A DNA stretch of 64,000 nucleotides from Escherichia coli (GTDB lineage Bacteria > Pseudomonadota > Gammaproteobacteria > Enterobacterales > Enterobacteriaceae), in assembly GCF_050920415.1 (NCBI RefSeq), contig NZ_CP169309.1, one strand, 5' to 3'. The notes under the pieces are model-generated. The model was given only the letters and a program-made list of their open reading frames with translations. It was not told the DNA's origin and did no database searches. Shown piece after piece: positions 2,338 to 56,099 of the stretch. The position numbers and the translations under genes are program-made. Every line of letters begins with the position of its first letter. The first letter of the stretch is position 1.

Positions 2338-3987
2338 GTGAACTGGCGCAGAATCGTCTGGCTATTAGCGTTGGTTACTCTGCCTACGCTTGCGGAGGAG
2401 ACGCCGTTACAACTGGCGCTGCGGGGCGCGCAGCACGATCAACTGTATCAGCTGTCGTCATCAGGCGTGACCAAAGTCTCGGCATTACCTGACACACTCA
2501 CCACGCCGTTAGGGAGTTTGTGGAAACTGTATGTTTACGCCTGGCTGGAGGATACCCATCAACCAGAGCAGCCCTACCAGTGTCGCGGAAACTCCCCGGA
2601 AGAGGTTTATTGTTGTCAGGCTGGGGAGAGCATAACGCGCGATACCGCGCTGGTACGCTCCTGTGGACTCTATTTTGCGCCGCAACGGTTGCATATTGGT
2701 GCAGATGTTTGGGGGCAATACTGGCAACAGCGTCAGGCACCTGCGTGGTTAGCGTCTCTTCCGACGCTGAAGCCAGAAACCTCGGTAACGGTTAAATCGC
2801 TGCTTGATTCATTAGCGACGTTACCCGCGCAAAACAAAGCTCAGGAAATCTTACTGGATGTGGTGCTGGACGAGGCGAAAATCGGTGTCGCATCCATGCT
2901 CGGTAGTCGGGTAAGGGTAAAAACCTGGAGCTGGTTTGCCGATGATAAACAGGAAATCCGTCAGGGTGGTGTTGCCGGCTGGTTAACGGATGGTACACCG
3001 CTGTGGGTTACTGGCAGTGGCACCAGCAAAACGGTACTGACCCGTTATGCGACGGTGCTTAATCGGGTATTGCCAGTGCCGACGCAAGTTGCCAGTGGGC
3101 AATGTGTAGAGGTGGAGCTGTTTGCCCGTTATCCGCTGAAGAAAATCACGGCGGAAAAGAGTACGACAGCAGTAAAACCCGGCGTACTTAATGGGCGCTA
3201 TCGTGTGACGTTTGCCAATGGTAACCACATTACGTTTGTCAGCCACGGTGAGACGACCTTACTGACAGAAAAGGGCAAACTGAAATTGCAGTCGCATCTT
3301 GATCGTGAAGAGTACGTTGCCAGAGCACTGGATCGCGAGGCGAAAAGTACGCCCCCTGAGGCAGCGAAAGCTATGACCGTGGCGATTCGCACTTTTTTAC
3401 AGCAAAACGCCAATCGGGAAGGCGATTGCCTGACCATCCCTGACAGCAGCGCCACGCAGCGTGTTTCTGCTTCGCCAGCTACCACGGGGGCGCGAATGAT
3501 GACCGCCTGGACGCAGGATCTCATCTATGCGGGCGACCCGGTCCATTATCACGACAGTCGCGCTACCGAAGGGACGCTTTCCTGGCGGCAAGCCACCGCC
3601 CAGGCGGGGCAGGGAGAGCGTTACGACCAGATACTCGCGTTTGCTTATCCCGACAACAGCCTTAGCCGCTGGGGATCGCCACGCTCAACCTGCCAGTTAT
3701 TACCCAAAGCGAAAGCCTGGCTGGCGAAAAAAATGCCGCAGTGGCGGCGTATGTTACAAGGCGAGACGGGGTACAACGAACCAGACGTGTTTGCGGTCTG
3801 TCGTTTAGTCTCAGGTTTCCCCTATACCGATCGGCAGCAGAAACGGCTGTTTATTCGTAACTTCTTTACGCTTCAGGATCGGCTGGATTTAACCCATGAG
3901 TATCTGCACCTGGCCTTTGATGGTTATCCCACCGGGCTTGATGAGAACTATATCGAAACGCTGACCCGACAATTATTAATGGACTAA
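2338..3987 (+). CDS. yfaQ: DUF2300-family protein YfaQ (549 aa), GTG start
   Basis: 549-aa ORF immediately after yfaS stop; length and synteny match yfaQ. Confidence 0.7.
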   Translation: MNWRRIVWLLALVTLPTLAEETPLQLALRGAQHDQLYQLSSSGVTKVSALPDTLTTPLGSLWKLYVYAWLEDTHQPEQPYQCRGNSPEEVYCCQAGESITRDTALVRSCGLYFAPQRLHIGADVWGQYWQQRQAPAWLASLPTLKPETSVTVKSLLDSLATLPAQNKAQEILLDVVLDEAKIGVASMLGSRVRVKTWSWFADDKQEIRQGGVAGWLTDGTPLWVTGSGTSKTVLTRYATVLNRVLPVPTQVASGQCVEVELFARYPLKKITAEKSTTAVKPGVLNGRYRVTFANGNHITFVSHGETTLLTEKGKLKLQSHLDREEYVARALDREAKSTPPEAAKAMTVAIRTFLQQNANREGDCLTIPDSSATQRVSASPATTGARMMTAWTQDLIYAGDPVHYHDSRATEGTLSWRQATAQAGQGERYDQILAFAYPDNSLSRWGSPRSTCQLLPKAKAWLAKKMPQWRRMLQGETGYNEPDVFAVCRLVSGFPYTDRQQKRLFIRNFFTLQDRLDLTHEYLHLAFDGYPTGLDENYIETLTRQLLMD

Positions 3988-3991
3988 TGCT

Positions 3992-4768
3992 ATGCGAAAG
4001 ATTTTTCTTCCGTTGTTACTGGTGGCGCTTTCGCCTGTTGCCCATGGCGAAGGTGTGCAGGAAGTCGAGATTGATGCACCGCTCTCTGGCTGGCATCCGG
4101 CAGAGGGTGAAGATGCCAGTTTTTCACAATCGATCAATTACCCGGCGTCGTCCGTCAACATGGCAGATGATCAAAATATCTCAGCGCAGATCCGCGGCAA
4201 AATAAAGAATTATGCGGCGGCGGGTAAAGTTCAGCAGGGCCGGTTGGTGGTCAACGGTGCCAGTATGCCGCAGAGAATTGAATCCGATGGTTCATTTGCA
4301 CGCCCTTATATTTTCACTGAAGGCAGCAACAGCGTGCAGGTCATCAGCCCAGATGGGCAAAGCCGACAAAAAATGCAGTTTTACTCAACGCCGGGGGCTG
4401 GAGTGATCCGCGCGCGTTTACGGCTGGTTCTCTCGTGGGATACGGACAATACCGACCTCGATCTTCATGTTGTCACGCCGGATGGTGAACACGCCTGGTA
4501 CGGTAACACGGTGCTGAAAAACAGTGGTGCACTGGATATGGATGTCACGACGGGTTACGGACCGGAGATTTTCGCCATGCCAGCGCCAGTTCACGGGCGC
4601 TATCAGGTATATATCAACTACTATGGTGGACGCAGTGAAACGGAATTGACGACCGCCCAACTGACGCTGATCACCGATGAAGGATCGGTTAATGAGAAAC
4701 AGGAAACATTTATTGTACCGATGCGTAATGCTGGCGAACTGACGCTGGTGAAAAGTTTTGACTGGTGA
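3992..4768 (+). CDS. yfaP: DUF2135-family exported protein YfaP (258 aa)
   Basis: 258-aa ORF with N-terminal signal-like segment; synteny between yfaQ and atoB. Confidence 0.7.
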   Translation: MRKIFLPLLLVALSPVAHGEGVQEVEIDAPLSGWHPAEGEDASFSQSINYPASSVNMADDQNISAQIRGKIKNYAAAGKVQQGRLVVNGASMPQRIESDGSFARPYIFTEGSNSVQVISPDGQSRQKMQFYSTPGAGVIRARLRLVLSWDTDNTDLDLHVVTPDGEHAWYGNTVLKNSGALDMDVTTGYGPEIFAMPAPVHGRYQVYINYYGGRSETELTTAQLTLITDEGSVNEKQETFIVPMRNAGELTLVKSFDW

Positions 4769-8026: not shown

Positions 8027-8688
8027 TATTTGCTCTCCTGTGAAACGATGATGTGGTCGATAACGGCACCAGGGGTGACAATATGGTCAGGTTGCAGTTC
8101 GCCGGTTTCGACCAGTTCATCTGGCTCCACCAGCGTGATATCAGCCGCAAGGGCAATCAGGGGGTTAAAGTTGCGGGCGCTAAGTTGGTAGGTCAGGTTG
8201 CCAAGTGTGTCGCAACGATGGGCGCGAATGAGCGCCAGGTCGGCGCGCAGTGGACGTTCAAGCAGCCAGGTTTTACCGTCGAGTGTCAGCGTCTGTTTGC
8301 CTTCCTCTACGACGGTGCCGACACCAGTTGGCGTGAGAAAACCACCAAGTCCAGCTCCACCACAGCGAATTTGCTCAATCAATGTACCTTGCGGTACGAG
8401 AACGACCTCCATTTCGCCAGAAATCATGCGCCGTCCGGTTTCCGGGTTGGTGCCGATATGTGAAGCAATTACTTTGCGGACTCGACCATTGACGATGAGC
8501 GGACCGATGCCGGTATCAACAAACGCGGTATCATTGGCTATCAATGTCAGGTCGCGAACACCAGATTCCAGTAATGCTTCCACCAGGCGGGATGGAGTGC
8601 CAATTCCCATAAATCCGCCCACCATGATGGTCATGCCGTCACGAAAGAAGCTGGAGGCGTCTTGTAATGTCATCAATTTTGTTTTCAT
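8026..8688 (-). CDS. atoD: Acetate CoA-transferase subunit alpha
   Basis: 220-aa ORF, first gene of atoDAEB. Confidence 0.9.
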
Positions 8689-8733
8689 TATTTATCCCTC
8701 TTGCATACACCGTTGTGGGTACAGTCAGGGAAT

Positions 8734-8749
8734 AGCAAGGGGAGTGCCA
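8734..8749 (-). promoter_or_regulatory. Sigma-54 (-24/-12) promoter of atoDAEB
   Basis: Minus strand reads TGGCAC-N5-TTGCT about 45 nt upstream of atoD start. Confidence 0.6.
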
Positions 8750-8830
8750 GAATGAAAATGTTTGATATTGTTTTTTAACTTATTGAATAGTAAAGAATAA
8801 ATAAGGTGGGGATTAAGAGGTTGAATGAAC

Positions 8831-8872
8831 GGCTATGCAGAAATTTGCGCACTGTGCAAATTTCTGCATAGC
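8831..8872. promoter_or_regulatory. AtoC enhancer: near-perfect 42-bp inverted repeat
   Basis: gctatgcagaaatttgcgcac/tgtgcaaatttctgcatagc palindrome upstream of the sigma-54 promoter. Confidence 0.6.
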
Positions 8873-45493: not shown

Positions 45494-45660
45494 TAGTTTA
45501 ATTGAGTGTATAACTAAATGATTTTAAATAATATTCTTTATTCAACTTTTAAATCGTATAACCAAACGTATAACTAAAATAATTTGCTGAAAAAGTGTAC
45601 AATTTCAGCAATAATTGCCCTAGCGACTATCATCCTGCTCCCCGGATTTTTTCCGGTTAA

Positions 45661-45897
45661 ATGTTAATCAGGCTGCTGGGCTTTGCCTGTTCGGTAGGTG
45701 TAATGATTATCGTAATACTTTTCCCCCAATGGGGTAAAAGCATCAACCGTAACGGAAGTCGTTATGGTTGCCTTGATGATCTGCGTGGTCATTATGACCA
45801 TTCAGCCAATGACCTTAATCAGAGCTTTTCGCTAAAAATGACGTTGGCCACTCGTCCGAAAAGCACAAAATCCCATCGATTTTTAATTAACGGTTAA
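45661..45897 (+). CDS. Hypothetical small membrane protein (78 aa)
   Basis: ORF with hydrophobic N-terminal segment (LLGFACSVGVMIIVILF); no convincing RBS. Confidence 0.25.
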   Translation: MLIRLLGFACSVGVMIIVILFPQWGKSINRNGSRYGCLDDLRGHYDHSANDLNQSFSLKMTLATRPKSTKSHRFLING

Positions 45898-46035
45898 ACC
45901 GTCTTTTTGTCACGTCGTGTCACTGGTTGTCACTCTCCGTCACGATCTCCGATAGCCTGGCTGCAAATTAAACTACGAAAATTTCGTAGTTCTGACTTCT
46001 TTCAGATAGTCGGTTGCCTGGTTACACGAAAAAAA

Positions 46036-46407
46036 TTACTTCCTGCGTTTATCCCGCTTTGTATGTCCGTGCTGAATGCCCCGCAGTGGATCTTCTTTTT
46101 TCAGGTCGATCCCCATGTCCGTTAGTGTTTTTGTGGCGGCGGTTCTTATGGCACAAATCAGGTCTCTTTCCGGTTCCCGGGTTATGGTTGCCTTCCGGAT
46201 ACATGCCGTTCGTCGTTCCGTTACATACTGACGCGCTTCATCACTTGCCGCCTGTTTCAGTAACTCACCCCAGCGATTAGCCGCCCGTCGCCATAAACCT
46301 TTCGCTTCCAGTTCTTCCGCTTTGTCATCATGCACCATAAGCATAATCCCATTGATACCTGTTAAATCTGAATGGTTGGTTTCCGTTCTTTTGATAATTT
46401 CCCTCAT
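46036..46407 (-). CDS. Hypothetical protein, possibly PerC-family transcriptional activator-like
   Basis: 123-aa ORF with LEAKGLWRRAANRWGELL motif reminiscent of PerC-type activators; start may be an internal Met. Confidence 0.4.
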   Translation of the reverse strand: MREIIKRTETNHSDLTGINGIMLMVHDDKAEELEAKGLWRRAANRWGELLKQAASDEARQYVTERRTACIRKATITREPERDLICAIRTAATKTLTDMGIDLKKEDPLRGIQHGHTKRDKRRK

Positions 46408-46450
46408 AGCTTATTGTATGACAGTACTGTCCCACAATAAGGAATCACAC

Positions 46451-46750
46451 ATGAGAATGACCAGGCACAAAAAACAGATTCTTGAACTTTACAAACCTGA
46501 GTATCGCGATTGGGTGCGGGTGGAGGCCGGAGATCCGCCTTTTGATGTTCGTGGTGTGACAGTGCTGCTCTATGGTTCCGAATATCAGCGATATCACATA
46601 GAGGCAACCCGACGAACGTTAAACGCTATGGTAAATGATGGGATCCTGTACCGCGTGAAAGTGCGCGAACCCCGCTTTGATGTGCGTATCGGTAGCGATG
46701 GCGCTCACTGTACGGTAATCCGGTACGGGCTGGGTAAATCAGATGATTAA
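46451..46750 (+). CDS. Hypothetical protein (99 aa)
   Basis: Start chosen at ATG 46451 preceded by AAGGA RBS (ORF track extends upstream to 46322); no recognisable domain. Confidence 0.45.
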   Translation: MRMTRHKKQILELYKPEYRDWVRVEAGDPPFDVRGVTVLLYGSEYQRYHIEATRRTLNAMVNDGILYRVKVREPRFDVRIGSDGAHCTVIRYGLGKSDD

Positions 46751-46873
46751 ATCACCAGAATGTAAATTTACATTCTGCCAGCCACCAGCTACAGAACGCA
46801 AATTTGCACTTTGCTGAAATATTAACGGGTTAGGCCAGAGTGCAAATTTGCATTATGCTTTAACTTCAGCAAG

Positions 46874-47155
46874 TTACCGCCGTAACCGCTCCGGCTTCTT
46901 CCACTGGTACGTTATTTTGGCTTTTTCCCTGTACGTCTGTATCCGGCGACGGTAGGCCAGCATTTCAAGAACGCGGATCCGTATGTCGCGCATATCCGCA
47001 TCATTAAGCTGGATACCATCACGGTGCATCACCTCAGCAACCACACGAACATAATTTTCTGCGGTCACGCTGTCCGGCTGCGTGGCCTGTTCGTCAGCCT
47101 GCTGGTTGATTCCGGCGACGCGGCGGATTAATCGCAGTAGTTCGGTTTCTGTCAT
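46874..47155 (-). CDS. Hypothetical protein (93 aa)
   Basis: ORF just downstream of the capsid-gene terminator; no recognisable domain. Confidence 0.4.
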   Translation of the reverse strand: MTETELLRLIRRVAGINQQADEQATQPDSVTAENYVRVVAEVMHRDGIQLNDADMRDIRIRVLEMLAYRRRIQTYREKAKITYQWKKPERLRR

Positions 47156-47315
47156 TGTGCCCCCATCGCGCTGGTTAAGAAAACAAGCTCAGATTTTTTG
47201 TAAAGAATCTGTCACGCTAAAAGATGTCGAACAAAAAACAACCTTCTCCATCATCTTTTTTGCATCGATTACATTAAAAACAACAGGTTACATACATGAT
47301 GATGATGACGATAAA

Positions 47316-47412
47316 ATCACAAAAATGCGCTTTTTTCCGCGCCCGCCCGCCCCGTGTTCATACCCACCCCACCAGGAGGACCCGCAAAAAAGGCGGCTGG
47401 TGCCGCCTTGTT
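47316..47412 (-). repeat. Repeated non-coding element, copy A: terminator hairpin plus GC box
   Basis: Shares a ~38-bp near-identical core (aaaaatgcgc(t/c)tttttccgcgcccgcccgccccgtg) and similar downstream architecture with copy B. Confidence 0.6.
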
Positions 47413-47413
47413 G

Positions 47414-49303
47414 TCATAGTGAATCGGTACCGCCTGATTTGACCATACCGCGATAATCCAGAGCGGCCACACCAGCATCAATACGGACTTTCCAGGCCAC
47501 ACCGTCAACGATGAAACCTTCCTGCTGTTCAAGGTAAGGCTCGTCATTGCCATCAAGATAAGCCACCTCGATTGTGTCCGTTCCCTGTGCGGAAAGCATG
47601 TACCATTGTTTTTCGCTGATATCATCAAGGCGGGGATCGACGATAATATCCAGTAGTTTGTGATACGGGTTAAAGATCCCGCTGTTTTTATCTGCCCCGA
47701 AAGGTGCGGTTGAGTTAATCATCTGCAACGCGCGATCTTCCAGTGCTGCCGGAACTAAAAGGAATTTAGGCGCAATATTCAGCACTTCGCCATTTTTGTC
47801 CTTCTGTGTGCGCATCAGGTGACGTGCTGCACTAAGTCCCGGTGTTGTCAGTCCTGCTTCAATCAGGTTGCTGTGTTTTTTGTCAAACAGCGCTATTCCA
47901 TCAGAAAGTTTTACGTTGCCTGTAAGCACCAGATTAACCAGATTTCCCACCGTTCTTGATGCTGCACGGCCCATAGCCATTGGCACCGTTGATAACTGAT
48001 CAAGGTCATCATTGATTATCGCCTGGCGGGTAATGCTGAAAATATTCCCGTAAGTAGCCAGCGCGATGGGTTCACCGCGATCGCTGGTGGTGATGTATTT
48101 ATATTCTGCCCCTTCCGGCACTTTGTTTAACGTAGAGAAACCATTCAGACCAACGCGGCGGGCTTCACGAAAGTTTGAAAGGGAACCTTTTTTCGTCCAC
48201 TGGCGGAATGTTTCGCCGCTGTGCTCCCAGCCTGCAAGCACTGATTTTTCAGCACCACCAGCAAGGATATCGGTAAAATCGCTGCTGCTGTGGTTGAATG
48301 CCGCGTTTACTATCTGCGAGCGTGTTCCGTAGCTGCCCGTGCTTATACCACGATGGGTTAATGATGCCTGTGCCATATCGAAAAGGCTCATCATGGCGTA
48401 AGGATTACCGCGTTCGGCCCGTTCGTGACCAAGACGCGCATTAAGCCCCTGGCGCATTGCATCGCCGGTTATGTTGCCGTTATCCGTGTACGCGTAGTAA
48501 AGATTTGCGGGGGTGGTTTTATTTGTTGGCGTTGATTCTTTACCCATAGCGAGTAAAAGGCGTTCGCGTGCATTCTCAACGCTACATTCTGAATCAGCAA
48601 GACAACTTATAGCCAGGTCGTTATATCTTCCGTTGAACGTGCCAAACAATTCACGGATGCCGTTAAGTCGTTCCTGTTCGCCACTGCCAGTTTTCTGGCT
48701 GATCATGCTTTTAATTTTTTCCGGCATATTTGAAAAATCTCCGATTCGTTTTGATTCAATTCGGGCCATTGCTGTAATCGCGGGTATAACCTCATCTGCG
48801 AAGCCGTTAGCCTTACACTCATTGCCATCCATCCAGGTTTCCGCCTCCATCATGGCGGTGATTTCCTGTTTGCTCCTGCCCGTTCTTCCGGCGTAGGTTT
48901 CAGCCATCGTGTCGCCCAGCTTGTCCATCAGGTCAGCAAAGCGGCGAACGTCGCCCGACACTCCGGCAGTAACACCACGGGGGGCATGTATCATCATCAT
49001 TGCGTTTTCAGGCATAACGATGTGATCGCCACACATGGCAATAAACGAGGCCATAGAAGCCGCCATGCCTTCAATGTGTACAATTTTCTTTGCCGGATGA
49101 TTTTTCAGGGCGTTATAGATAGCCAGCCCTTCAAAGATGTCGCCACCAGGTGAATGGATGCGAAGATGGATTTCAGACGCATTACCACACGCGTTGATCT
49201 CGTCAGTAAGTGCCGATGCTTTTACACCGTACCCGCCGATCTCGTCATAAATGCGCACATAGACAACATCTGCCATAGCCTTAATGGAAAACCATGTTTT
49301 CAT
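47414..49303 (-). CDS. Prohead protease (ClpP/S14-like) fused to a capsid-like C-terminal domain
   Basis: 629-aa ORF: N-terminal ~180 aa has ClpP-like motifs (GMAASMAS, MMIHAP); C-terminal ~350 aa reads as an HK97-fold major capsid protein, assigned by impression only. Confidence 0.75.
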   Translation of the reverse strand: MKTWFSIKAMADVVYVRIYDEIGGYGVKASALTDEINACGNASEIHLRIHSPGGDIFEGLAIYNALKNHPAKKIVHIEGMAASMASFIAMCGDHIVMPENAMMMIHAPRGVTAGVSGDVRRFADLMDKLGDTMAETYAGRTGRSKQEITAMMEAETWMDGNECKANGFADEVIPAITAMARIESKRIGDFSNMPEKIKSMISQKTGSGEQERLNGIRELFGTFNGRYNDLAISCLADSECSVENARERLLLAMGKESTPTNKTTPANLYYAYTDNGNITGDAMRQGLNARLGHERAERGNPYAMMSLFDMAQASLTHRGISTGSYGTRSQIVNAAFNHSSSDFTDILAGGAEKSVLAGWEHSGETFRQWTKKGSLSNFREARRVGLNGFSTLNKVPEGAEYKYITTSDRGEPIALATYGNIFSITRQAIINDDLDQLSTVPMAMGRAASRTVGNLVNLVLTGNVKLSDGIALFDKKHSNLIEAGLTTPGLSAARHLMRTQKDKNGEVLNIAPKFLLVPAALEDRALQMINSTAPFGADKNSGIFNPYHKLLDIIVDPRLDDISEKQWYMLSAQGTDTIEVAYLDGNDEPYLEQQEGFIVDGVAWKVRIDAGVAALDYRGMVKSGGTDSL

Positions 49304-49494
49304 AGCCAGGCTCCTAACGTTGCCCTGTACCAGTATTCAACCGCGCTGCGTGTGATTTGTCCTTTCGTGGGTACCGGCATACCCGGGTGATTGTCTTTGA
49401 TGAACTGCTGATAGCGTTCGATCTTCTCCATAGTTCCGGCGTCTATGTGTACCGTGGCACTTTTATCCGGCTTTCTGGTGTTGTTCTCTGGCAT
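49300..49494 (-). CDS. Hypothetical small protein coupled to the protease-capsid gene
   Basis: ORF 49300..49527; internal ATG at 49494 has a strong GGAGG RBS; stop overlaps capsid ATG (ATGA). Confidence 0.45.
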   Translation of the reverse strand: MPENNTRKPDKSATVHIDAGTMEKIERYQQFIKDNHPGMPVPTKGQITRSAVEYWYRATLGAWL

Positions 49495-49854
49495 AAATCC
49501 GCCTCCGTTTTGATTAACGGGCATCATTATTGATCGATAAAAGTAATAGATAAATCATTTTCTACCTGAAAATTAGATTATATTTTTTCTGATTATTCTC
49601 AGAGAGGCAAAGCCATTGACGCATTTTTGCTATTGAAGCAATATTAAGACTCGTCATCCTGGCGATAAAAACTCCTTTGTCGTGTAAAAGCGCCTCCGGT
49701 AACAGCAATCGAGGGCGCTTTTTTTTGCGCCTGTTTTTTTGTAAATGTTTTCGGGAACGCTCCAGTGATGAACAAAAAACAACCTGATTCGACACTAAAA
49801 ATTTTTATTCCTCAATATATCAATAACTTATAGTGGTGGTGATGGTGCCATAAA

Positions 49855-49952
49855 AATCAAAAAATGCGCCTTTTTCCGCGCCCGCCCGCCCCGTGGACAG
49901 GCCCACCAAGCCAGGAGTACCTACAAAAAAGCCGGATTGCTCCGGCTGTGTG
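49855..49952 (-). repeat. Repeated non-coding element, copy B
   Basis: See copy A; hairpin gccggattgctccggc plus GC box. Confidence 0.6.
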
Positions 49953-49965
49953 CTCACTTCTTCGG

Positions 49966-50217
49966 TTATTCTCCAGCGCTTTTAACGTTGATGGTTGTAA
50001 CCTGTTCCGCTTCGGCAATCTCCCATTCTGTCAGCGTGGCAAAGTTTGCCGCCGCTGTGGTCATGAATGCGCTTATCAGGTCGGGATGTGCTTTCGCGTA
50101 TCCTTCCCCCGTGTTGCGGTCGATGATTTTTATCGCCACTCTCAGCCAGTGCTCTGTAAGGTCAATGGCGCGGTTATGCTGCTTCTTCTGATTATTAAGT
50201 TTTCCTGATGTGCGCAT
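49966..50217 (-). CDS. Hypothetical protein (83 aa)
   Basis: ORF between the iteron array and repeat copy B; G-rich RBS-like sequence upstream. Confidence 0.4.
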   Translation of the reverse strand: MRTSGKLNNQKKQHNRAIDLTEHWLRVAIKIIDRNTGEGYAKAHPDLISAFMTTAAANFATLTEWEIAEAEQVTTINVKSAGE

Positions 50218-50249
50218 TTTTATTTTTACCCCCTCGTTTAAAAAGTTTT

Positions 50250-50500
50250 GAGTTGTGCCTCCCCTTGTCTACCTTATCTACCTTACTGGCCACCATGCCA
50301 GTAATGGCGCGGCTTTCAGTGGGGTAGAGTGCTTTTATCCACTATCTACCCCGTATCTACCTCCCTGTCTGATTCAGGTAAAATCAGGTAGAGAGGGTAG
50401 ATAGTAGGTAGACAGTAAAAAAAGGCTGTCTACCCAAGTTAATGTACTGAATTAAATGTATTTTTCTTTACTCAGGTAGACAGGGTAGACAGCCATTGCA
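50250..50500. repeat. Iteron array, putative replication origin
   Basis: At least 11 copies of GGTAGA/TCTACC in both orientations within ~250 bp, just 3' of the replication gene. Confidence 0.55.
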
Positions 50501-50505
50501 ACAAA

Positions 50506-52254
50506 TTATAAAAACGCGTCGCAATCGTCTGTTGTTATTGCGTTAGTCTGCGTTACTCCTTTAACTTTCCGCGTAATATATTCATGTCCGTAAACTTTCG
50601 CGGCTGGCTTCATAGCCTTGCCAAAGTCATTTACGTTTAGCGGTTTGCTCCTGCCTGCGTACGCCATAAACGCCAGATAGACGCGGTAAAGGCTGTTTCT
50701 GGTCGTGTACTTCACTGAATCGCCACCGCCGCCCATCATCAGGCCGCGTGCTTCCTCCAGAAAATTCAGGAACTGGCAAAACTCAATAACCGGATCCGTC
50801 TGTTGCTTTATTGCCAGTGCTTCATCACCGTCACGCTGTTCAATGAGTAAAGCCCGTGCCTTTTCAGGGTCGGCAAAGTTCGCCAGCAAGCGGCGGATAA
50901 TGACAGGGATTTCAGCCGCGATCTTTTCCGGTAGCTCCCTGTCTTTTTCTGCCTCGCTTACGATGTTATCGAACCGGAATATCACCCGACGACGTGCCAC
51001 ACCTCCGGCCCGTTCGGTGAATATCATCGGATTGTTATTGGTTGCCAGCACCACCGCCCTGATTACCGCCGTAAAACGCTTTTCATATTTCGGGTTAATT
51101 TCCACGGGGTCGCCGCCCGTGATTTTCTTGATGCCCGTTCCTTCGCCTGTATATTTCTGCTGGTCTGCCAGGACGATAAGACGACTCCCGACAACCTGCG
51201 CACGCCCACCAGCATCATCAAGCGATGTCATTTCAGCGCTTACCGTGTTTTGTTTCCCTGCCAGAAGGCTGGCTATGTGTGTGAATGTACTTTTACCGCT
51301 CCCGCCGTCTCCGGTGGCCTCAATAAACATCTGCCAGTCGTACCGGTTCGCCATAATCATGTACAGCGCGGCACATATACGCATCATCTTGCTCGGGTCT
51401 TTTCCGGCTGCGTGCTCAAGCCATTTATGAAAGTTTGGCGCGTTATCGCGGATGTTCTCCCCGGGTGCTGGTGGCGTGTACTCAATGCCGTTGTGCGTGG
51501 TGATCCAGTTCTCCGGCGTGTGCGGGGAAAATTCCCCCGTTTTCAGGTCAAGCGCACCATTGGCGAACGGCAGCAAATCGCCGGACGGCTCGCCCATTGG
51601 TTCGGCAATAACTTTTAACGCTTCCACGGCGTTATTGATTACGCGCTTGCTGAAAGTGGCCCTGTGCTCTGAATAGATAGCCACCATTTCGCGGCTCAGC
51701 TCCATTGTGCTGACCGGACACCATACCCCGCCGCGCCATACGTGAACGATTTCACTTTCAGGATGCACACAAACGCCATCAAAGCGCTCGGCAAGCAGCT
51801 GCGCGCGCTCACTGTCTGCCATTTGTGCCAGTTGCGTATTTTTCTGCTCCGGCATGGTAAGCCCTGCGGCAATATTTTCACGCTCAGCATTCAGATAGCG
51901 CCGCCAGTTTTCACACTTCTGGACGTGCATTCCTTCGGGGTAAAAATTTGCGTCCTGAATATCTGCCGCCGCCAGCTTCTGACCAATCTTTTTGGTCTCC
52001 ACCAAATCCAGTTCTCCGGCCTGGTACAGCCTTACGCGCTTTTTCCCATCCGGAACAATTTTCAGTGCATCAAGTTCGGCAAGCTGATTTGGCCCAAGCC
52101 ACACAGGCGGCACATTATCGCCGGATGCGGGGCCATCCTGCTCCTGCCATTGTTTCGCGTGCGACCAGGCATCACTACCCGCGAAAATAATTACCTCTGT
52201 GTCTTTGTGTTTTATTCCGCGTGGCTGTTTTTTTACGTTCGGTGCCAGTTTCAT
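50506..52254 (-). CDS. Replication protein: NTPase/helicase-like with Walker A motif (primase-helicase-like)
   Basis: 582-aa ORF with Walker A GDGGSGKST and a putative Walker B (LIVLAD); SF3/D5/P4-alpha-type assignment is by impression. Confidence 0.75.
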   Translation of the reverse strand: MKLAPNVKKQPRGIKHKDTEVIIFAGSDAWSHAKQWQEQDGPASGDNVPPVWLGPNQLAELDALKIVPDGKKRVRLYQAGELDLVETKKIGQKLAAADIQDANFYPEGMHVQKCENWRRYLNAERENIAAGLTMPEQKNTQLAQMADSERAQLLAERFDGVCVHPESEIVHVWRGGVWCPVSTMELSREMVAIYSEHRATFSKRVINNAVEALKVIAEPMGEPSGDLLPFANGALDLKTGEFSPHTPENWITTHNGIEYTPPAPGENIRDNAPNFHKWLEHAAGKDPSKMMRICAALYMIMANRYDWQMFIEATGDGGSGKSTFTHIASLLAGKQNTVSAEMTSLDDAGGRAQVVGSRLIVLADQQKYTGEGTGIKKITGGDPVEINPKYEKRFTAVIRAVVLATNNNPMIFTERAGGVARRRVIFRFDNIVSEAEKDRELPEKIAAEIPVIIRRLLANFADPEKARALLIEQRDGDEALAIKQQTDPVIEFCQFLNFLEEARGLMMGGGGDSVKYTTRNSLYRVYLAFMAYAGRSKPLNVNDFGKAMKPAAKVYGHEYITRKVKGVTQTNAITTDDCDAFL

Positions 52255-52550
52255 TTTTTACCCCTGAATACGTTAAGCATCTTTTTTATTTCCTGAATAT
52301 TGGCGCGTGCTTTCTCCCTGCTGGTTGGTTTACTGCGGGGCGCTGCCTGTACCAGAGAAAAATCACGCCGAAACTGATAAACAGGCATCACGCAATCATA
52401 TTCGTAGCCTTCACGACGGTAGGTGATGCGCCGTTCTGCCACGCCTTTAATCGTTACCATGCCGCCATATTTATCGCGGTAAATATCGCCGCGCGTAAAT
52501 TTAGGGTGAGTGTTGCCACTAGCAGTTAAGCCAGAAATTTTCTTTTTCAT
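52251..52550 (-). CDS. Hypothetical protein (99 aa), coupled to the replication gene
   Basis: Stop overlaps replication-gene start; basic protein. Confidence 0.45.
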   Translation of the reverse strand: MKKKISGLTASGNTHPKFTRGDIYRDKYGGMVTIKGVAERRITYRREGYEYDCVMPVYQFRRDFSLVQAAPRSKPTSREKARANIQEIKKMLNVFRGKK

Positions 52551-52566
52551 GGTTTTTATTCCGCGT

Positions 52567-52782
52567 TTATTTTTTATCGTGAATTTCGATCGCTTTATTT
52601 AATTCGGTGATTACCGTATCGAGTAATGAAATAAACGCACCAGCAAGATTAGATTCACGTTCACCTTCCGGCGCATCACTTAAACCATCAAGCCAGATAA
52701 GCAATATTTGCCGCAAGCATTCACTGTTAGTCAGTGCGTTTTCTGCATGGCTCATTAATTTAAAATAACGGTCATCATGCAT
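52567..52782 (-). CDS. Hypothetical protein (~71 aa)
   Basis: ORF 52567..52827; internal ATG at 52782 has AAGGGG RBS and sits 2 nt after the upstream gene's stop. Confidence 0.4.
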   Translation of the reverse strand: MHDDRYFKLMSHAENALTNSECLRQILLIWLDGLSDAPEGERESNLAGAFISLLDTVITELNKAIEIHDKK

Positions 52783-53011
52783 GGTGCGCCCCTTGAATAT
52801 CTGCGGTAAGAATTTTGCCTGCCTCATTCAGCGCCATATCAGCACTAAGTTGCATAACCGCCAGCGAATGAGGAACGAAAGCCCCTGCATATTCTGTTTC
52901 ACTGGTGGCGTGCTTATGCGCCATGTCAGCAATAACAGAAATATCAATAAGCGCATCCATCAGCGTTTTGATGGCTTCGGCGGCTGCGTCCGGACGGGGG
53001 TTATTGCACAT
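52775..53011 (-). CDS. Hypothetical protein (78 aa), first gene of the replication operon
   Basis: Strong GGAGG RBS 6-7 nt upstream of ATG; faces the divergent operator region. Confidence 0.45.
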   Translation of the reverse strand: MCNNPRPDAAAEAIKTLMDALIDISVIADMAHKHATSETEYAGAFVPHSLAVMQLSADMALNEAGKILTADIQGAHHA

Positions 53012-53289
53012 GGCGCACCTCCTGACGAATACGGGCGGCGAATACCATCACGCAGCCAGCCGGGGATTGCTGGCGGGCTTCCTGTTCGCTGGTGGCCTCG
53101 ATGGTAATCACGCGCGGTTGTGCCGTGCTCAGGGCGATAAAACGCCAGATGTATTTATTCAGGTTGTGCGAATCCCGCCCTTGCGGGTGTGTGGTATGAT
53201 TTCTCATAGCTGCCTCGATACTCTTTCTATCGTTGGTGGTTAGACGCCCTGCATGTGTGCCACCACTGCGGGGCGTTGCGTTTTTTGAT

Positions 53290-53347
53290 GCACACGTGTT
53301 AAGGTGTACACCTACAAAGCAAAAACATAACGCCATAGGTGTACACA
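53290..53347. promoter_or_regulatory. Operator cluster in the divergent control region
   Basis: Palindromes ACACGTGT (53293), GGTGTACACC (53303..53312) and AGGTGTACAC (53338..53346, overlapping the RBS of the plus-strand gene). Confidence 0.5.
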
Positions 53348-53541
53348 TGTCAACAGTTATTAAGCGCGATAAAAAACAAAAAGGCACAGGAAAGACCCCA
53401 CCGTTCCATATGCGTATAGTTCCTGAATTGAAGGAGCAGTTTGATAACGAAGCCAGTAACGATGGAGTAAGTCTTGCCAACTGGCTTAAAGAGTTGGGGC
53501 GCGCCGAACTAAAGCGACGCGGCATTGAACCTAAAGGCTGA
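53347..53541 (+). CDS. Small DNA-binding regulator, putative ribbon-helix-helix (64 aa)
   Basis: ATG with AGGTG RBS; HMRIVPELKEQF strand-like then helical DGVSLANWLKELGRAEL suggests RHH (assigned by impression); divergent from the replication operon. Confidence 0.45.
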   Translation: MSTVIKRDKKQKGTGKTPPFHMRIVPELKEQFDNEASNDGVSLANWLKELGRAELKRRGIEPKG

Positions 53542-53544
53542 TGT

Positions 53545-53664
53545 ATGACCGATAACAAACTTTCTCTAACAGAGAATAAACCATCAGGCTTCTTACCAAG
53601 AAAAATCCTTGATGAGATCAAACGCCGCCAGCGTAAAAAATCCAAAGGAGCAGACACGGAATAG
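53545..53664 (+). CDS. Hypothetical basic peptide (39 aa)
   Basis: Short ORF 3 nt after the upstream stop; below the ORF-track length cutoff. Confidence 0.2.
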   Translation: MTDNKLSLTENKPSGFLPRKILDEIKRRQRKKSKGADTE

Positions 53665-53667
53665 CTT

Positions 53668-53832
53668 ATGCAACAAATACCATACTGGCTTGGCTCTCTG
53701 TTTGTATTTGCATTTCTCATGAAATATTGCATTAGCAATGAACTTGTCGGTAATGAAAGTGCATGCGCGAGCGCTGAAAAAAATATTCCACTTCTCGTAT
53801 ATGAAAACGAAAGCCCTGTGAACCGCAATTGA
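53668..53832 (+). CDS. Hypothetical small membrane peptide (54 aa)
   Basis: ATG 3 nt after the upstream stop; hydrophobic N-terminus (YWLGSLFVFAFLM) then polar tail. Confidence 0.25.
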   Translation: MQQIPYWLGSLFVFAFLMKYCISNELVGNESACASAEKNIPLLVYENESPVNRN

Positions 53833-54108
53833 GCGAAATTTAATGAATTCACTCTTTGCCCACCAGCCGCAAATGTGGCATTGTTGGCGATGCTCATGCG
53901 TTGGGGATAACGTGTAGCTTGTGTCGAAGGGCCATCGTGACAGGTGGCCTTTTCTTTACCTGTTATCTGGCAATTGTGGCGCTTCGTCACACGGTTGATA
54001 TAATTCCCCTGCACTGATCCATTTTTTTCGCAGCAGGTTAATTGTTCGCAAGGGCGCTCCGGCAACGGGGCGCTTTTTGTTATGTTCATCACGTTACGCC
54101 TCACACCA

Positions 54109-54315
54109 TTACGCAGCCGTTCCGCGCGCTTCTTCCTCGCGCTCTTTCAGCCAGGCCAGCACTTCATCTTCATACCAGCCAACACGACGCAGACCGATTT
54201 TGAAGCCTTTCGGAAATTTTCCGGCGTTGATCATGTCCTGTAGCGAACTGTCTGCCTTGATGCGCAGAATATTTTTTACTTCCTGACGGGTAAGAATTTT
54301 TCTGATTGTTTCCAC
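54109..54315 (-). CDS. alpA: AlpA-family transcriptional regulator/excisionase-like protein (GTG start)
   Basis: 68-aa ORF with MerR-like HTH (LTRQEVKNILRIKADSSLQDMINAGKFPKGFKIG...); typical neighbour of P4-type integrases. Confidence 0.8.
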   Translation of the reverse strand: METIRKILTRQEVKNILRIKADSSLQDMINAGKFPKGFKIGLRRVGWYEDEVLAWLKEREEEARGTAA

Positions 54316-54384
54316 TATGTTTTACCTCGTTAATCCGGCGTATTCCGGTGATAAATACGGTAAAACAGGGCAGGGCGGGAAAAA

Positions 54385-54420
54385 CAGTACCCACCGTTTT
54401 AAAACGGTACCCACTGTTTT
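54385..54420. promoter_or_regulatory. Putative operator upstream of alpA
   Basis: acaGTACCCACcgtttt aaaacgGTACCCACtgtttt: motif repeated 20 bp apart around a central palindrome. Confidence 0.4.
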
Positions 54421-54485
54421 TTATCTTATTGATTACGCTTTTCTTTCTGCAAAAAAATAGCGACCGCAAGGGGCCGCTATTGTGA

Positions 54486-54728
54486 TTACCGTTTCCACTT
54501 CTTAGGTCGCCCACCGCATTTAAGGCTGGTGGGCCTCAGCACCTTGTCGATGCTTTCAGCCAGATTTTTCGATGCGCCACGCGAGCGCAAAAAACTGACT
54601 ACCTCGTGTTTTGTGGGGGCAGTTGATTTGTCTTCCGGATCGTACGTTGACCAGAATTCACGATTTGCCATTAAGGCCAACTGAAGGCCTTCACCATAGG
54701 CAGGGGATACCTTTTCATTGAAAAACAC
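54486..54728 (-). CDS. Hypothetical protein (80 aa) between integrase and alpA
   Basis: ORF followed by a hairpin/T-run near 54455..54480. Confidence 0.3.
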   Translation of the reverse strand: MFFNEKVSPAYGEGLQLALMANREFWSTYDPEDKSTAPTKHEVVSFLRSRGASKNLAESIDKVLRPTSLKCGGRPKKWKR

Positions 54729-54829
54729 TCGGATAACTCCTTGAATTTCAAGAGTCGGGTCTCTCTGTATATGGTGATTATACGATGGTTTAGCATGGTT
54801 TGCATCGCTTTTACTGGTTTTTTGTACAG

Positions 54830-56071
54830 TTATACGGCACGGATACCCCTTTTACCACTGGCTATGGTCACTCCGGTTGCTGCGGCCTCTACAAATTCCC
54901 CCCACCAGCGCATAAGCACCACGCGCTTTTCCAGGTAGTTACTTCGGTTATATGCTCGCCTTACCTCGTTCGTGTCCACGTGTGCGAGTGCGGCCTCGAT
55001 TACGTCCGGCTCGAATCCTTCCTCGTTCGCTGCTGTGCTGAATATGGCGCGTAATCCATGAGACACCAGCACGCCAGCGAATCCCATTCGCCGCAATGCT
55101 GCGTTGGCGGTCTGGCTGTTCATAGGCTGCCGTGGGTCTTTCAGGCTAGGGAAAACGTGCTCGCGGTGGTGGCTGATTGGCTTCATGGCCTCCAGTACCG
55201 CCATAGCCTGACTACAAAGCGGGATAACGTGATCACGCCGCATCTTCATGCGTCCGGCGGGGATCGTCCATTGTTGCGCGTCCATGTCGATTTCTTCCCA
55301 GCGTGCTGACGATGCTTCAACCGGACGGGTTACAGTCAGTAGCTGCCATTCAATCAGTAATCTGGTCTGCCGTTCTGTTGCTGATACGGATAAAGCCTGC
55401 ATAAGCTCCGGCAACTGTTCGGGGCGGATTGTTGGCATATGTTTTTTTACAGGGGAGGGGAACGCCTTACGCACATTCATAGCCGGATTGGCATCAATCA
55501 GCCCACTGTTGGCGGCGTAATCCATTACCTCATTAACGCGCTGTAAAACCCGCTTGAGTGTTTCCAGGTTGCCGCGCTCCTTGATGGGTGTAAGCACCTC
55601 AACGAACCTTCGGGCAGTGAGGGTATCTATTGGCGTGTTGCCGATGAACGGGAATACATATTTATCCAGCGAACGCCAGATGTCTTTAATCGTGTTGGGG
55701 GCCAGATTCTGGCTGATTTTCACCTGGTACCATGCCGCCGCCACATTTTCGAACGTGTTCCCTTGTCTTCGGGCCTCTGCCTCTCGTTTTTTCTTCTCAT
55801 GGTCCTGCGGGTCAGTTCCGGCACTGATTAACGTCCTGTACTCGCTACGGCGTTTTCTGGCATCAGCCAGGGAAACATCTTCAAGAGATCCAAAACTCAG
55901 CAATATTCTTTTTTTGTCCGATGGTCGGTAGTAGGAAAATCGCCAGAGTTTTGATCCGGACGGTTTTACCAGGAGAAAAAGCCCACCGCCGTCCTGTAGG
56001 GTGTACTCCTTTTGCGCTGGTCTGGCTGCTTTGATCTGCACTGTGGTTAATGGGGGTGTTTTTCTCGCCAT
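54830..56071 (-). CDS. int: Tyrosine site-specific integrase (P4-type)
   Basis: ORF 54830..56089; start placed at MARKTPPLTT; N-terminal arm-binding-like domain and catalytic HGLR...LAH...Y. Confidence 0.9.
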   Translation of the reverse strand: MARKTPPLTTVQIKAARPAQKEYTLQDGGGLFLLVKPSGSKLWRFSYYRPSDKKRILLSFGSLEDVSLADARKRRSEYRTLISAGTDPQDHEKKKREAEARRQGNTFENVAAAWYQVKISQNLAPNTIKDIWRSLDKYVFPFIGNTPIDTLTARRFVEVLTPIKERGNLETLKRVLQRVNEVMDYAANSGLIDANPAMNVRKAFPSPVKKHMPTIRPEQLPELMQALSVSATERQTRLLIEWQLLTVTRPVEASSARWEEIDMDAQQWTIPAGRMKMRRDHVIPLCSQAMAVLEAMKPISHHREHVFPSLKDPRQPMNSQTANAALRRMGFAGVLVSHGLRAIFSTAANEEGFEPDVIEAALAHVDTNEVRRAYNRSNYLEKRVVLMRWWGEFVEAAATGVTIASGKRGIRAV

Positions 56072-56099
56072 ATGTCTATGATTCCACACGAAAAAACAG

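Follow-up and report, generated by a model that had tools for sequence, protein, structure and literature searches.

A GGTAGA iteron array directly 3′ of an SF3 helicase gene as the probable replication origin of an Escherichia coli phage-inducible chromosomal island

The iteron array next to rep

We analyzed a 64,000-nucleotide stretch of the E. coli contig NZ_CP169309.1 (assembly GCF_050920415.1), hereafter the window, and focused on a dense cluster of short repeats (iterons) located next to a replication gene, rep, within a phage-inducible chromosomal island (PICI). The cluster occupies the gap between two minus-strand genes, one encoding a 582-residue protein (Rep) and the other encoding an 83-residue protein. 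From rep across the array to the second gene, the features are as follows.

50506–52254, minus strand: rep ('pri-rep'), initiator-helicase gene, 582 amino acids (Pfam domains, TIGR01613, PHROG 864)
50475–50489, plus strand: iteron pair closest to the rep stop codon; GGTAGA at 50475 and at 50484 (9-bp spacing); borders the AT-rich stretch on its right
50436–50472, no strand: AT-rich spacer of 37 bp, 19% GC; candidate DNA-unwinding element
50429–50434, minus strand: single iteron, left flank of the AT-rich stretch; mirror partner of 50323
50387–50412, plus strand: right inner arm of three direct iterons (50387, 50396 and 50407; spacing 9 and 11 bp)
50345–50361, minus strand: left inner arm of two iterons (50345 and 50356; spacing 11 bp)
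50323–50328, plus strand: single iteron, mirror partner of 50429
50298–50318, no strand: conserved non-iteron block CAGTAATGGCGCGGCTTTCAG, 21 bp, from the alignment of 10 diverged origins
50268–50282, minus strand: distal iteron pair (50268 and 50277, 9 bp apart), mirror partner of 50475/50484
49966–50217, minus strand: 83-residue gene directly after the origin (PHROG 1231, no known function; no Pfam match)

An earlier note, made from the sequence alone, had reported at least 11 copies of GGTAGA/TCTACC in both orientations between positions 50250 and 50500. The placement was accurate, and the count turned out to be exactly 11 within 50268–50489, of which six are plus-strand and five minus-strand hexamers. 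The start positions are 50268(−), 50277(−), 50323(+), 50345(−), 50356(−), 50387(+), 50396(+), 50407(+), 50429(−), 50475(+) and 50484(+). Such a concentration is exceedingly improbable by chance: at the rate observed outside the array (3 × 10−4 per base), 0.066 copies are expected per 222 bp, and the Poisson probability of at least 11 is 2.5 × 10−21. Among other hexamers in 222-bp spans sampled across the window, poly-A reached at most eight copies and the remainder at most five. The window as a whole contains 30 copies of GGTAGA/TCTACC, compared with 14.2 ± 3.6 in shuffled sequences. Copies oriented alike define the extended consensus RGGTAGAYAG, and two degenerate copies, TATCCAC at 50336–50342 and TGTCTGAT at 50366, could be recognized by eye. 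A search for a second RGGTAGAYAG cluster, allowing up to two mismatches, found none in 45500–56200.

The 11 sites form six groups that are arranged with mirror symmetry about 50378/50379. Five iteron pairs are related by this dyad, with the start and end coordinates of each pair summing to 100757. The symmetry is also visible as inverted repeats: the arms formed by the two outermost pairs (18 nt) are 89% complementary, those of the inner arms (47 nt) are 72% complementary, and the iterons at 50429 and 50407 form a perfect 9-bp inverted repeat across an A7 tract. Outside the hexamers, the two halves of the array are 40% complementary, compared with the random expectation of 25%. The mirrored spacers are unlike each other, as one is AT-rich (50436–50472) and the other (50283–50322) is GC-rich and contains the CAGTAATGGCGCGGCTTTCAG block.

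Two candidate features at the RNA level were rejected. Rfam searches at E ≤ 1 over 49500–50800 returned just sub-threshold matches to miRNA precursors, which arise from the dyad symmetry. As for a functional hairpin, the array does fold better than shuffled sequences (z = −5.7), but this merely restates the presence of inverted iterons.

An AT-rich stretch within the array and the position of the array directly downstream of a Walker A protein had likewise been described from the sequence, and both observations hold. The AT-rich spacer contains the least stable 30-mer of the surrounding kilobase: the duplex at 50441–50470 has a ΔG of −30.7, compared with a mean of −40.3 (standard deviation 3.5) over 49900–50900. 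This weakest duplex sits between oppositely oriented iterons, namely 50429 on the minus strand and 50475 and 50484 on the plus strand. The iteron nearest to rep is found 17 bp past its stop codon, 3′ of the gene, and the far end of the array lies about 50 bp before the start codon of the 83-residue gene. With regard to host-factor sites, neither an IHF consensus nor GATC is present. A single DnaA-box-like site, TTATCCACT at 50335, has eight of nine matches and is lost in diverged relatives.

Identity with the EcCICFT073 origin and conservation across E. coli

The segment 50200–50520 (321 bp) is 100% identical to positions 1383981–1384301 of the E. coli CFT073 genome (NC_004431). The match falls inside EcCICFT073 (AE014075, 1377749–1389210), an island located between roxA (ycfD) and phoQ, and lies directly 3′ of its pri-rep gene (annotated as 'DNA primase family protein'). 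The attachment (att) gene of this island is given as ycfD-phoQ in Table S1 of Fillol-Salom et al. (2018, ISME J; PMC6092414). In the experiments described there, rep of EcCICFT073 was cloned together with the putative ori in a thermosensitive vector. The pri-ori plasmid is reported to have given colonies at 44 °C, the restrictive temperature, and the rep mutant none; deletion of ori resulted in significantly fewer colonies. Rep in the assay plasmid is described as being under an arabinose promoter, and loss of ori still impaired replication (PMC6092414).

The proposal of an iteron origin beside rep, in the manner of chromosomal islands, is thus borne out by complete identity with a region that has been described and tested as an ori. 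The experiment suggested by the earlier note, cloning of rep with the iteron segment, had in effect already been published for identical origin DNA, with the CFT073 Rep, according to the account in PMC6092414. For the Rep variant encoded in the window, autonomous replication of rep plus ori is putative; the published result concerns the identical EcCICFT073 segment. The feature itself is already known: it is an EcCICFT073-type PICI origin, here on another island backbone. As a discovery it carries little weight, since the identical sequence is the published, functionally tested origin of a model Gram-negative PICI.

The published constructs also bear on whether the array might instead be a packaging signal (cos or pac) or a partition (centromere) site. 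Such sites are likewise clusters of short repeats, and the pri-ori plasmid is described as showing signs of poor segregation (PMC6092414). However, the cos sites of EcCICFT073 were mapped and tested on other constructs (pJP2027–2029, as opposed to pJP2033–2034 for pri-ori). Moreover, the segment has no similar phage record, whereas the cos of an island must resemble that of its helper. Partition is at odds with the lack of any ParA/ParB-type gene in the island and with the description of PICIs as elements without plasmid-maintenance functions (PMC6092414). We consider a packaging or partition role extremely unlikely.

A survey of 5426 complete E. coli genomes revealed a homologous origin in 563 of them, in all cases on the chromosome, with identities ranging from 100% down to 69%. 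The plasmid collection yielded three matches, one at 94% (CP088587.1) and two at 68% identity. The record CP088587.1 ('plasmid' pD17EC0246-3) is a 32.5-kb circle in which the chromosomal genes pntAB, mlc, clcB and mdtIJ surround a capsid-forming PICI that also carries this rep-ori cassette, and the record is more likely to be an assembly error than a naturally occurring plasmid replicon.

Nine copies spanning the identity range were aligned with the window, giving 10 diverged origins that are 69–95% identical. In this alignment, invariant positions make up 50 of 66 columns in the iterons, compared with 66 of 226 in the rest of the intergenic DNA (Fisher p = 2 × 10−11). Each locus has 9–11 exact hexamers in the same orientations, and their distance to the rep stop codon is kept within 1–2 bp. 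The dyad center is likewise fixed, being 125–128 bp from the rep stop codon in 11 of 11 loci, with three to five mirrored pairs per locus. The GGTAGA cores corresponding to 50475/50484 occupy the same positions in 11 loci, and both copies are present in nine of these. Among the deviations, AGTAGA replaces the core nearest to rep in one locus (L006), and two inner-arm cores are gone in another (L004). All aligned relatives have an AT-rich stretch in the corresponding position, with diverging sequence. Conservation outside the iterons is seen in the 21-bp CAGTAATGGCGCGGCTTTCAG block, which is kept among origins otherwise just about 70% identical; the other conserved non-iteron block is the Shine-Dalgarno region of the 83-residue gene (50228–50258).

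These patterns can be set against the idea that the array arose by inverted duplication, has since decayed and is now a product of chance or a relic with no present function. The excess complementarity of the two halves outside the hexamers does fit an origin by inverted duplication. Yet the hexamers are perfectly kept next to spacers that have diverged to near-random, the same layout recurs in hundreds of genomes, and functional data are on record (PMC6092414). The probability of a functionless relic is close to negligible.

The C-terminal domain of Rep (residues 481–582) is 93–100% identical among the compared loci, with one outlier (L005) at 83%, while the identity of the origin DNA falls to about 70%. 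The bases flanking the iteron core vary together with this domain. In one form of the flank, GGTAGA-Y-A-G, A is found at position +2 in 9–11 of 9–11 sites, and residues 539–548 of the corresponding Rep read LNVNDFGKAM (LSVNEFGKAM in L005). In the other form, GGTAGA-R-G-G, position +2 is G in 8–11 of 10–11 sites, and the Rep motif is either LNVAEFSKAM or LNVADFSKAM. This covariation across 11 loci may define two specificity groups. It agrees with the domain reading the site; alternatively, it may reflect one evolutionary split.

A complete exchange of initiator is found in E. coli O22:H8 strain 154 (L011). The island in this strain has the same att site and the same neighbors (a DUF4222 gene upstream, a small gene and ssb downstream) and encodes a RepA-family helicase instead. 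Right after the stop codon of the RepA-type gene, at 8643–8844 of this locus, there are about 10 CCCACTTT/AAAGTGGG repeats together with AT-rich DNA. The repeats are thus exchanged along with the initiator gene, as would be the case for cognate binding sites. The iteron is specific to the initiator allele, with CCCACTTT repeats in the RepA-type cassette and with the GGTAGA flank shifting along with substitutions in the C-terminal domain.

The exchange is also relevant to a reading in which the array is an operator, bound by Rep or by some other island regulator, that controls the downstream genes (the 83-residue gene, ssb and capsid) and has no part in starting replication. Iteron-binding initiators, for example those of iteron plasmids, often autoregulate as well, and the array takes up the entire intergenic space upstream of the 83-residue gene, up to about 50 bp before its start codon. 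The repeats, however, follow the initiator gene when it changes, whereas the downstream genes in strain 154 are unchanged. No sigma-70-like promoter was found on either strand of 49800–50700. Furthermore, the island is described as a single rightward operon, and the ori deletion impaired a plasmid in which rep was under the arabinose promoter (PMC6092414). We regard a purely regulatory array as very unlikely.

Rep and a proposed mechanism of initiation

Rep has a Walker A motif, GDGGSGKS, at residue 315. Pfam detects D5_N (residues 151–280), DUF5906, which represents the superfamily 3 (SF3) P-loop ATPase (314–415), and the C-terminal Pox_D5/winged-helix domain (Pox_D5, 485–573). At the sequence level, residues 186–430 match PriRep5 of the Staphylococcus aureus pathogenicity island SaPI5 (PDB 7OLA, E = 1.5 × 10−14), and residues 486–574 match the origin-binding domain of the phage P4 alpha protein (PDB 1KA8, E = 1.1 × 10−6). 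An AlphaFold2 model of Rep (pLDDT 93) was compared with PDB using Foldseek. The top match was again 7OLA (E = 5 × 10−19, approximately 330–480 aligned columns), followed by poxvirus D5/E5 and African swine fever virus primase-helicases. Rep is an SF3 helicase that is closest to SaPI5 PriRep5, and its C-terminal domain is homologous to the P4 alpha origin-binding domain. The N-terminus (residues 1–135) is a degenerate TOPRIM-like domain, a remnant in a protein that is annotated as a primase. Compared with EcCICFT073 Pri-Rep, Rep of the window is 91% identical overall, and residues ~146–582 are identical save two substitutions.

More distant relatives of Rep differ in what follows the gene. A metagenome contig (Ga0596923_0000744, L016) encodes a 49%-identical Rep, and TGTTCAC/GTGAACA repeats start 40 bp past its stop codon; the TGTTCAC repeats, at 3340–4075, are scattered over about 750 bp. 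TGTTCAC is the core of the phage P4 type I iteron, which ties the origins of this family to that of P4. Another relative (L017) has a 36%-identical Rep with no Pox_D5 match, and no repeats were detected in its 166-bp downstream spacer. The dispersed repeats of the former and the repeat-free spacer of the latter indicate that the layout is typical of the close family and is not universal in the wider one.

We conclude, with a probability of about 0.92, that the array is the vegetative replication origin (ori) of the PICI. In the mechanism that we propose, the island would first be induced and excised, and Rep would then be produced. Rep, an SF3 ring helicase that would double as the initiator, would recognize the GGTAGA iterons through its C-terminal winged-helix domain. 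Rep multimers assembled on the array would open the duplex at the AT-rich spacer (50436–50472), and Rep would load itself as hexamers and unwind DNA in the 3′–5′ direction. The circular island would be copied by the host replisome and later packaged. In this scheme, we infer which domain binds the iterons, where the origin melts, and in what stoichiometry and orientation the hexamers are loaded.

Several points weigh against this interpretation. The AT-rich stretch is off-center in the array, which makes the melting site a guess. In the published assay, deletion of ori is reported to have lowered colony numbers and not to have abolished colony formation (PMC6092414). The Rep used in that assay is only 68% identical to the Rep of the window over the first 145 residues. 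We found no report of an electrophoretic mobility shift assay or footprint of Rep on the GGTAGA repeats for this element. Finally, Rep has no recognizable active primase domain.

A more specific version of the origin model can be formulated, although we consider it doubtful. According to this version, the 222-bp array would be a conserved platform with two-fold symmetry, consisting of five mirrored pairs and having the AT-rich spacer opposite the conserved 21-bp GC-rich block. A primase-less SF3 initiator would assemble on it head-to-head. The +2 flank base (A or G), together with the substitutions N542A and G545S in the C-terminal domain, would divide the E. coli PICIs with a GGTAGA core into two specificity groups. 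The mirror layout, the covariation between the flank and the C-terminal domain, and the degenerate TOPRIM remnant are the leads that the analysis offers on origin recognition by self-loading SF3 initiators.

The host island and known systems

The island that carries rep and the array includes the following further features.

45555–56160, minus strand: host element, PICI of about 10.6 kb, between yejO and tRNA-Pro(ggg)/yejM
54830–56089: int (integrase), island gene
54109–54315, minus strand: AlpA-like regulator
52251–52550, minus strand: DUF4222 gene, 99 amino acids, overlapping the rep start by 4 nt; found upstream of both rep types
47414–49303, minus strand: fusion of a ClpP-like prohead protease with an HK97-type major capsid protein, 629 amino acids
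46036–46407: PerC-like activator, island gene

Beginning with the integrase, the order is int, the AlpA-like gene, small genes, the DUF4222 gene, rep, the origin, two small genes, the protease–capsid fusion and the PerC-like gene. The island is bounded by att repeats at 45555–45579 and 56134–56160, and the att core corresponds to the site that Table S1 of PMC6092414 lists for the yejM PICI. Its size of 10.6 kb, int, the AlpA-like gene, rep, capsid genes and a dedicated att site are all features by which PICIs are recognized. The protease–capsid fusion presumably serves capsid-size redirection. Neither a portal nor a terminase was noticed among the island open reading frames (ORFs) screened, in which no specific search for them was made; capsid-forming PICIs differ in this respect. 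In most relatives the 83-residue gene is followed by ssb, which is missing from the window island and from its closest relative (L013). In place of ssb, the region 49530–49965 has a terminator-like hairpin (49947–49930, minus strand) and an AT-rich non-coding stretch (49540–49600, about 18% GC). Farther upstream, a 367-residue ORF (53001–54104, minus strand) is of odd composition and has no annotated counterpart in L013. It looks spurious; more likely, small regulatory genes lie here, among them an Arc-like ORF (53233–53541, plus strand) and the AlpA-like gene.

Judged by sequence, the island is a mosaic that carries a known cassette made up of the helicase, its C-terminal domain and ori, because Rep residues ~146–582 are nearly identical to the CFT073 protein and the first 145 residues are 68% identical. 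The rep-ori cassette travels as a unit among PICI backbones of the classical, protease–capsid-fusion and capsid-forming kinds. For annotation, the value of the array is that it marks a 10.6-kb phage satellite beside yejM in this genome.

The closest known system is the ori of EcCICFT073, which shares with the window the DNA over 50200–50520, the place 3′ of rep and the iterons flanking an AT-rich stretch. The two islands as such are different. That of the window is found at the yejM/tRNA-Pro att site rather than at ycfD-phoQ, has a protease–capsid fusion rather than separate capsid and decoration genes, and has neither ssb nor perC beside the origin.

Origins of iteron plasmids (pSC101, R6K, RK2, P1) similarly have repeated initiator sites beside an AT-rich unwinding element. 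Their iterons are direct repeats of 17–22 bp, and the Rep that binds them is not a helicase but brings in DnaA and DnaB. In contrast, the sites of the array are 6–10 bp long and occur in either orientation, and the initiator doubles as the helicase. Instead of the 17–22 bp tandem repeats and conserved DnaA boxes of these plasmids, we found the one DnaA-box-like site with eight of nine matches, which is not conserved.

At the origins recognized by the SV40 large T antigen and papillomavirus E1, the helicase uses an origin-binding domain of its own to bind short (5–6 bp) inverted sites. An AT-rich element lies to one side of these sites, and the helicase assembles as a double hexamer. The resemblance is one of mechanism, and the array in the window is longer (222 bp compared with about 64 bp) and has more sites.

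With phage P4, the window shares an SF3 helicase acting with short repeated sites, and the C-terminal origin-binding domain of alpha (1KA8) is homologous to Rep residues 486–574. P4 alpha has an active primase domain. The P4 type I iteron, TGTTCACC, is absent from the island, with a single copy in the 64 kb, at 4484. The P4 origin consists of two parts, ori and the distant crr, whereas the window island is without a second cluster.

The SaPI origins differ from the array in that there is no DNA similarity, the iteron sequence is another one, and the AT-rich stretch is off-center here. PriRep5 has a complete primase portion (about 300 residues), as opposed to the 135-residue TOPRIM-like remnant of Rep, and the protein identity over the shared core is just ~16–19%. 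In layout, the correspondence is close: the origins of SaPIbov1, SaPI1 and SaPI5 are likewise directly 3′ of rep and have an AT-rich region flanked on both sides by 6–12 short (5–6 bp) iterons, the nearest ones being opposed (PMC9371898). SaPI Reps are initiator helicases that load themselves; a winged-helix domain at their C-terminus recognizes the penta- or hexanucleotide iterons just after rep, and neither binding nor melting requires ATP (PMC9371898). Both systems rely on an initiator helicase that carries a winged-helix domain at its C-terminus, and PriRep5 is the solved structure closest to Rep of the window.
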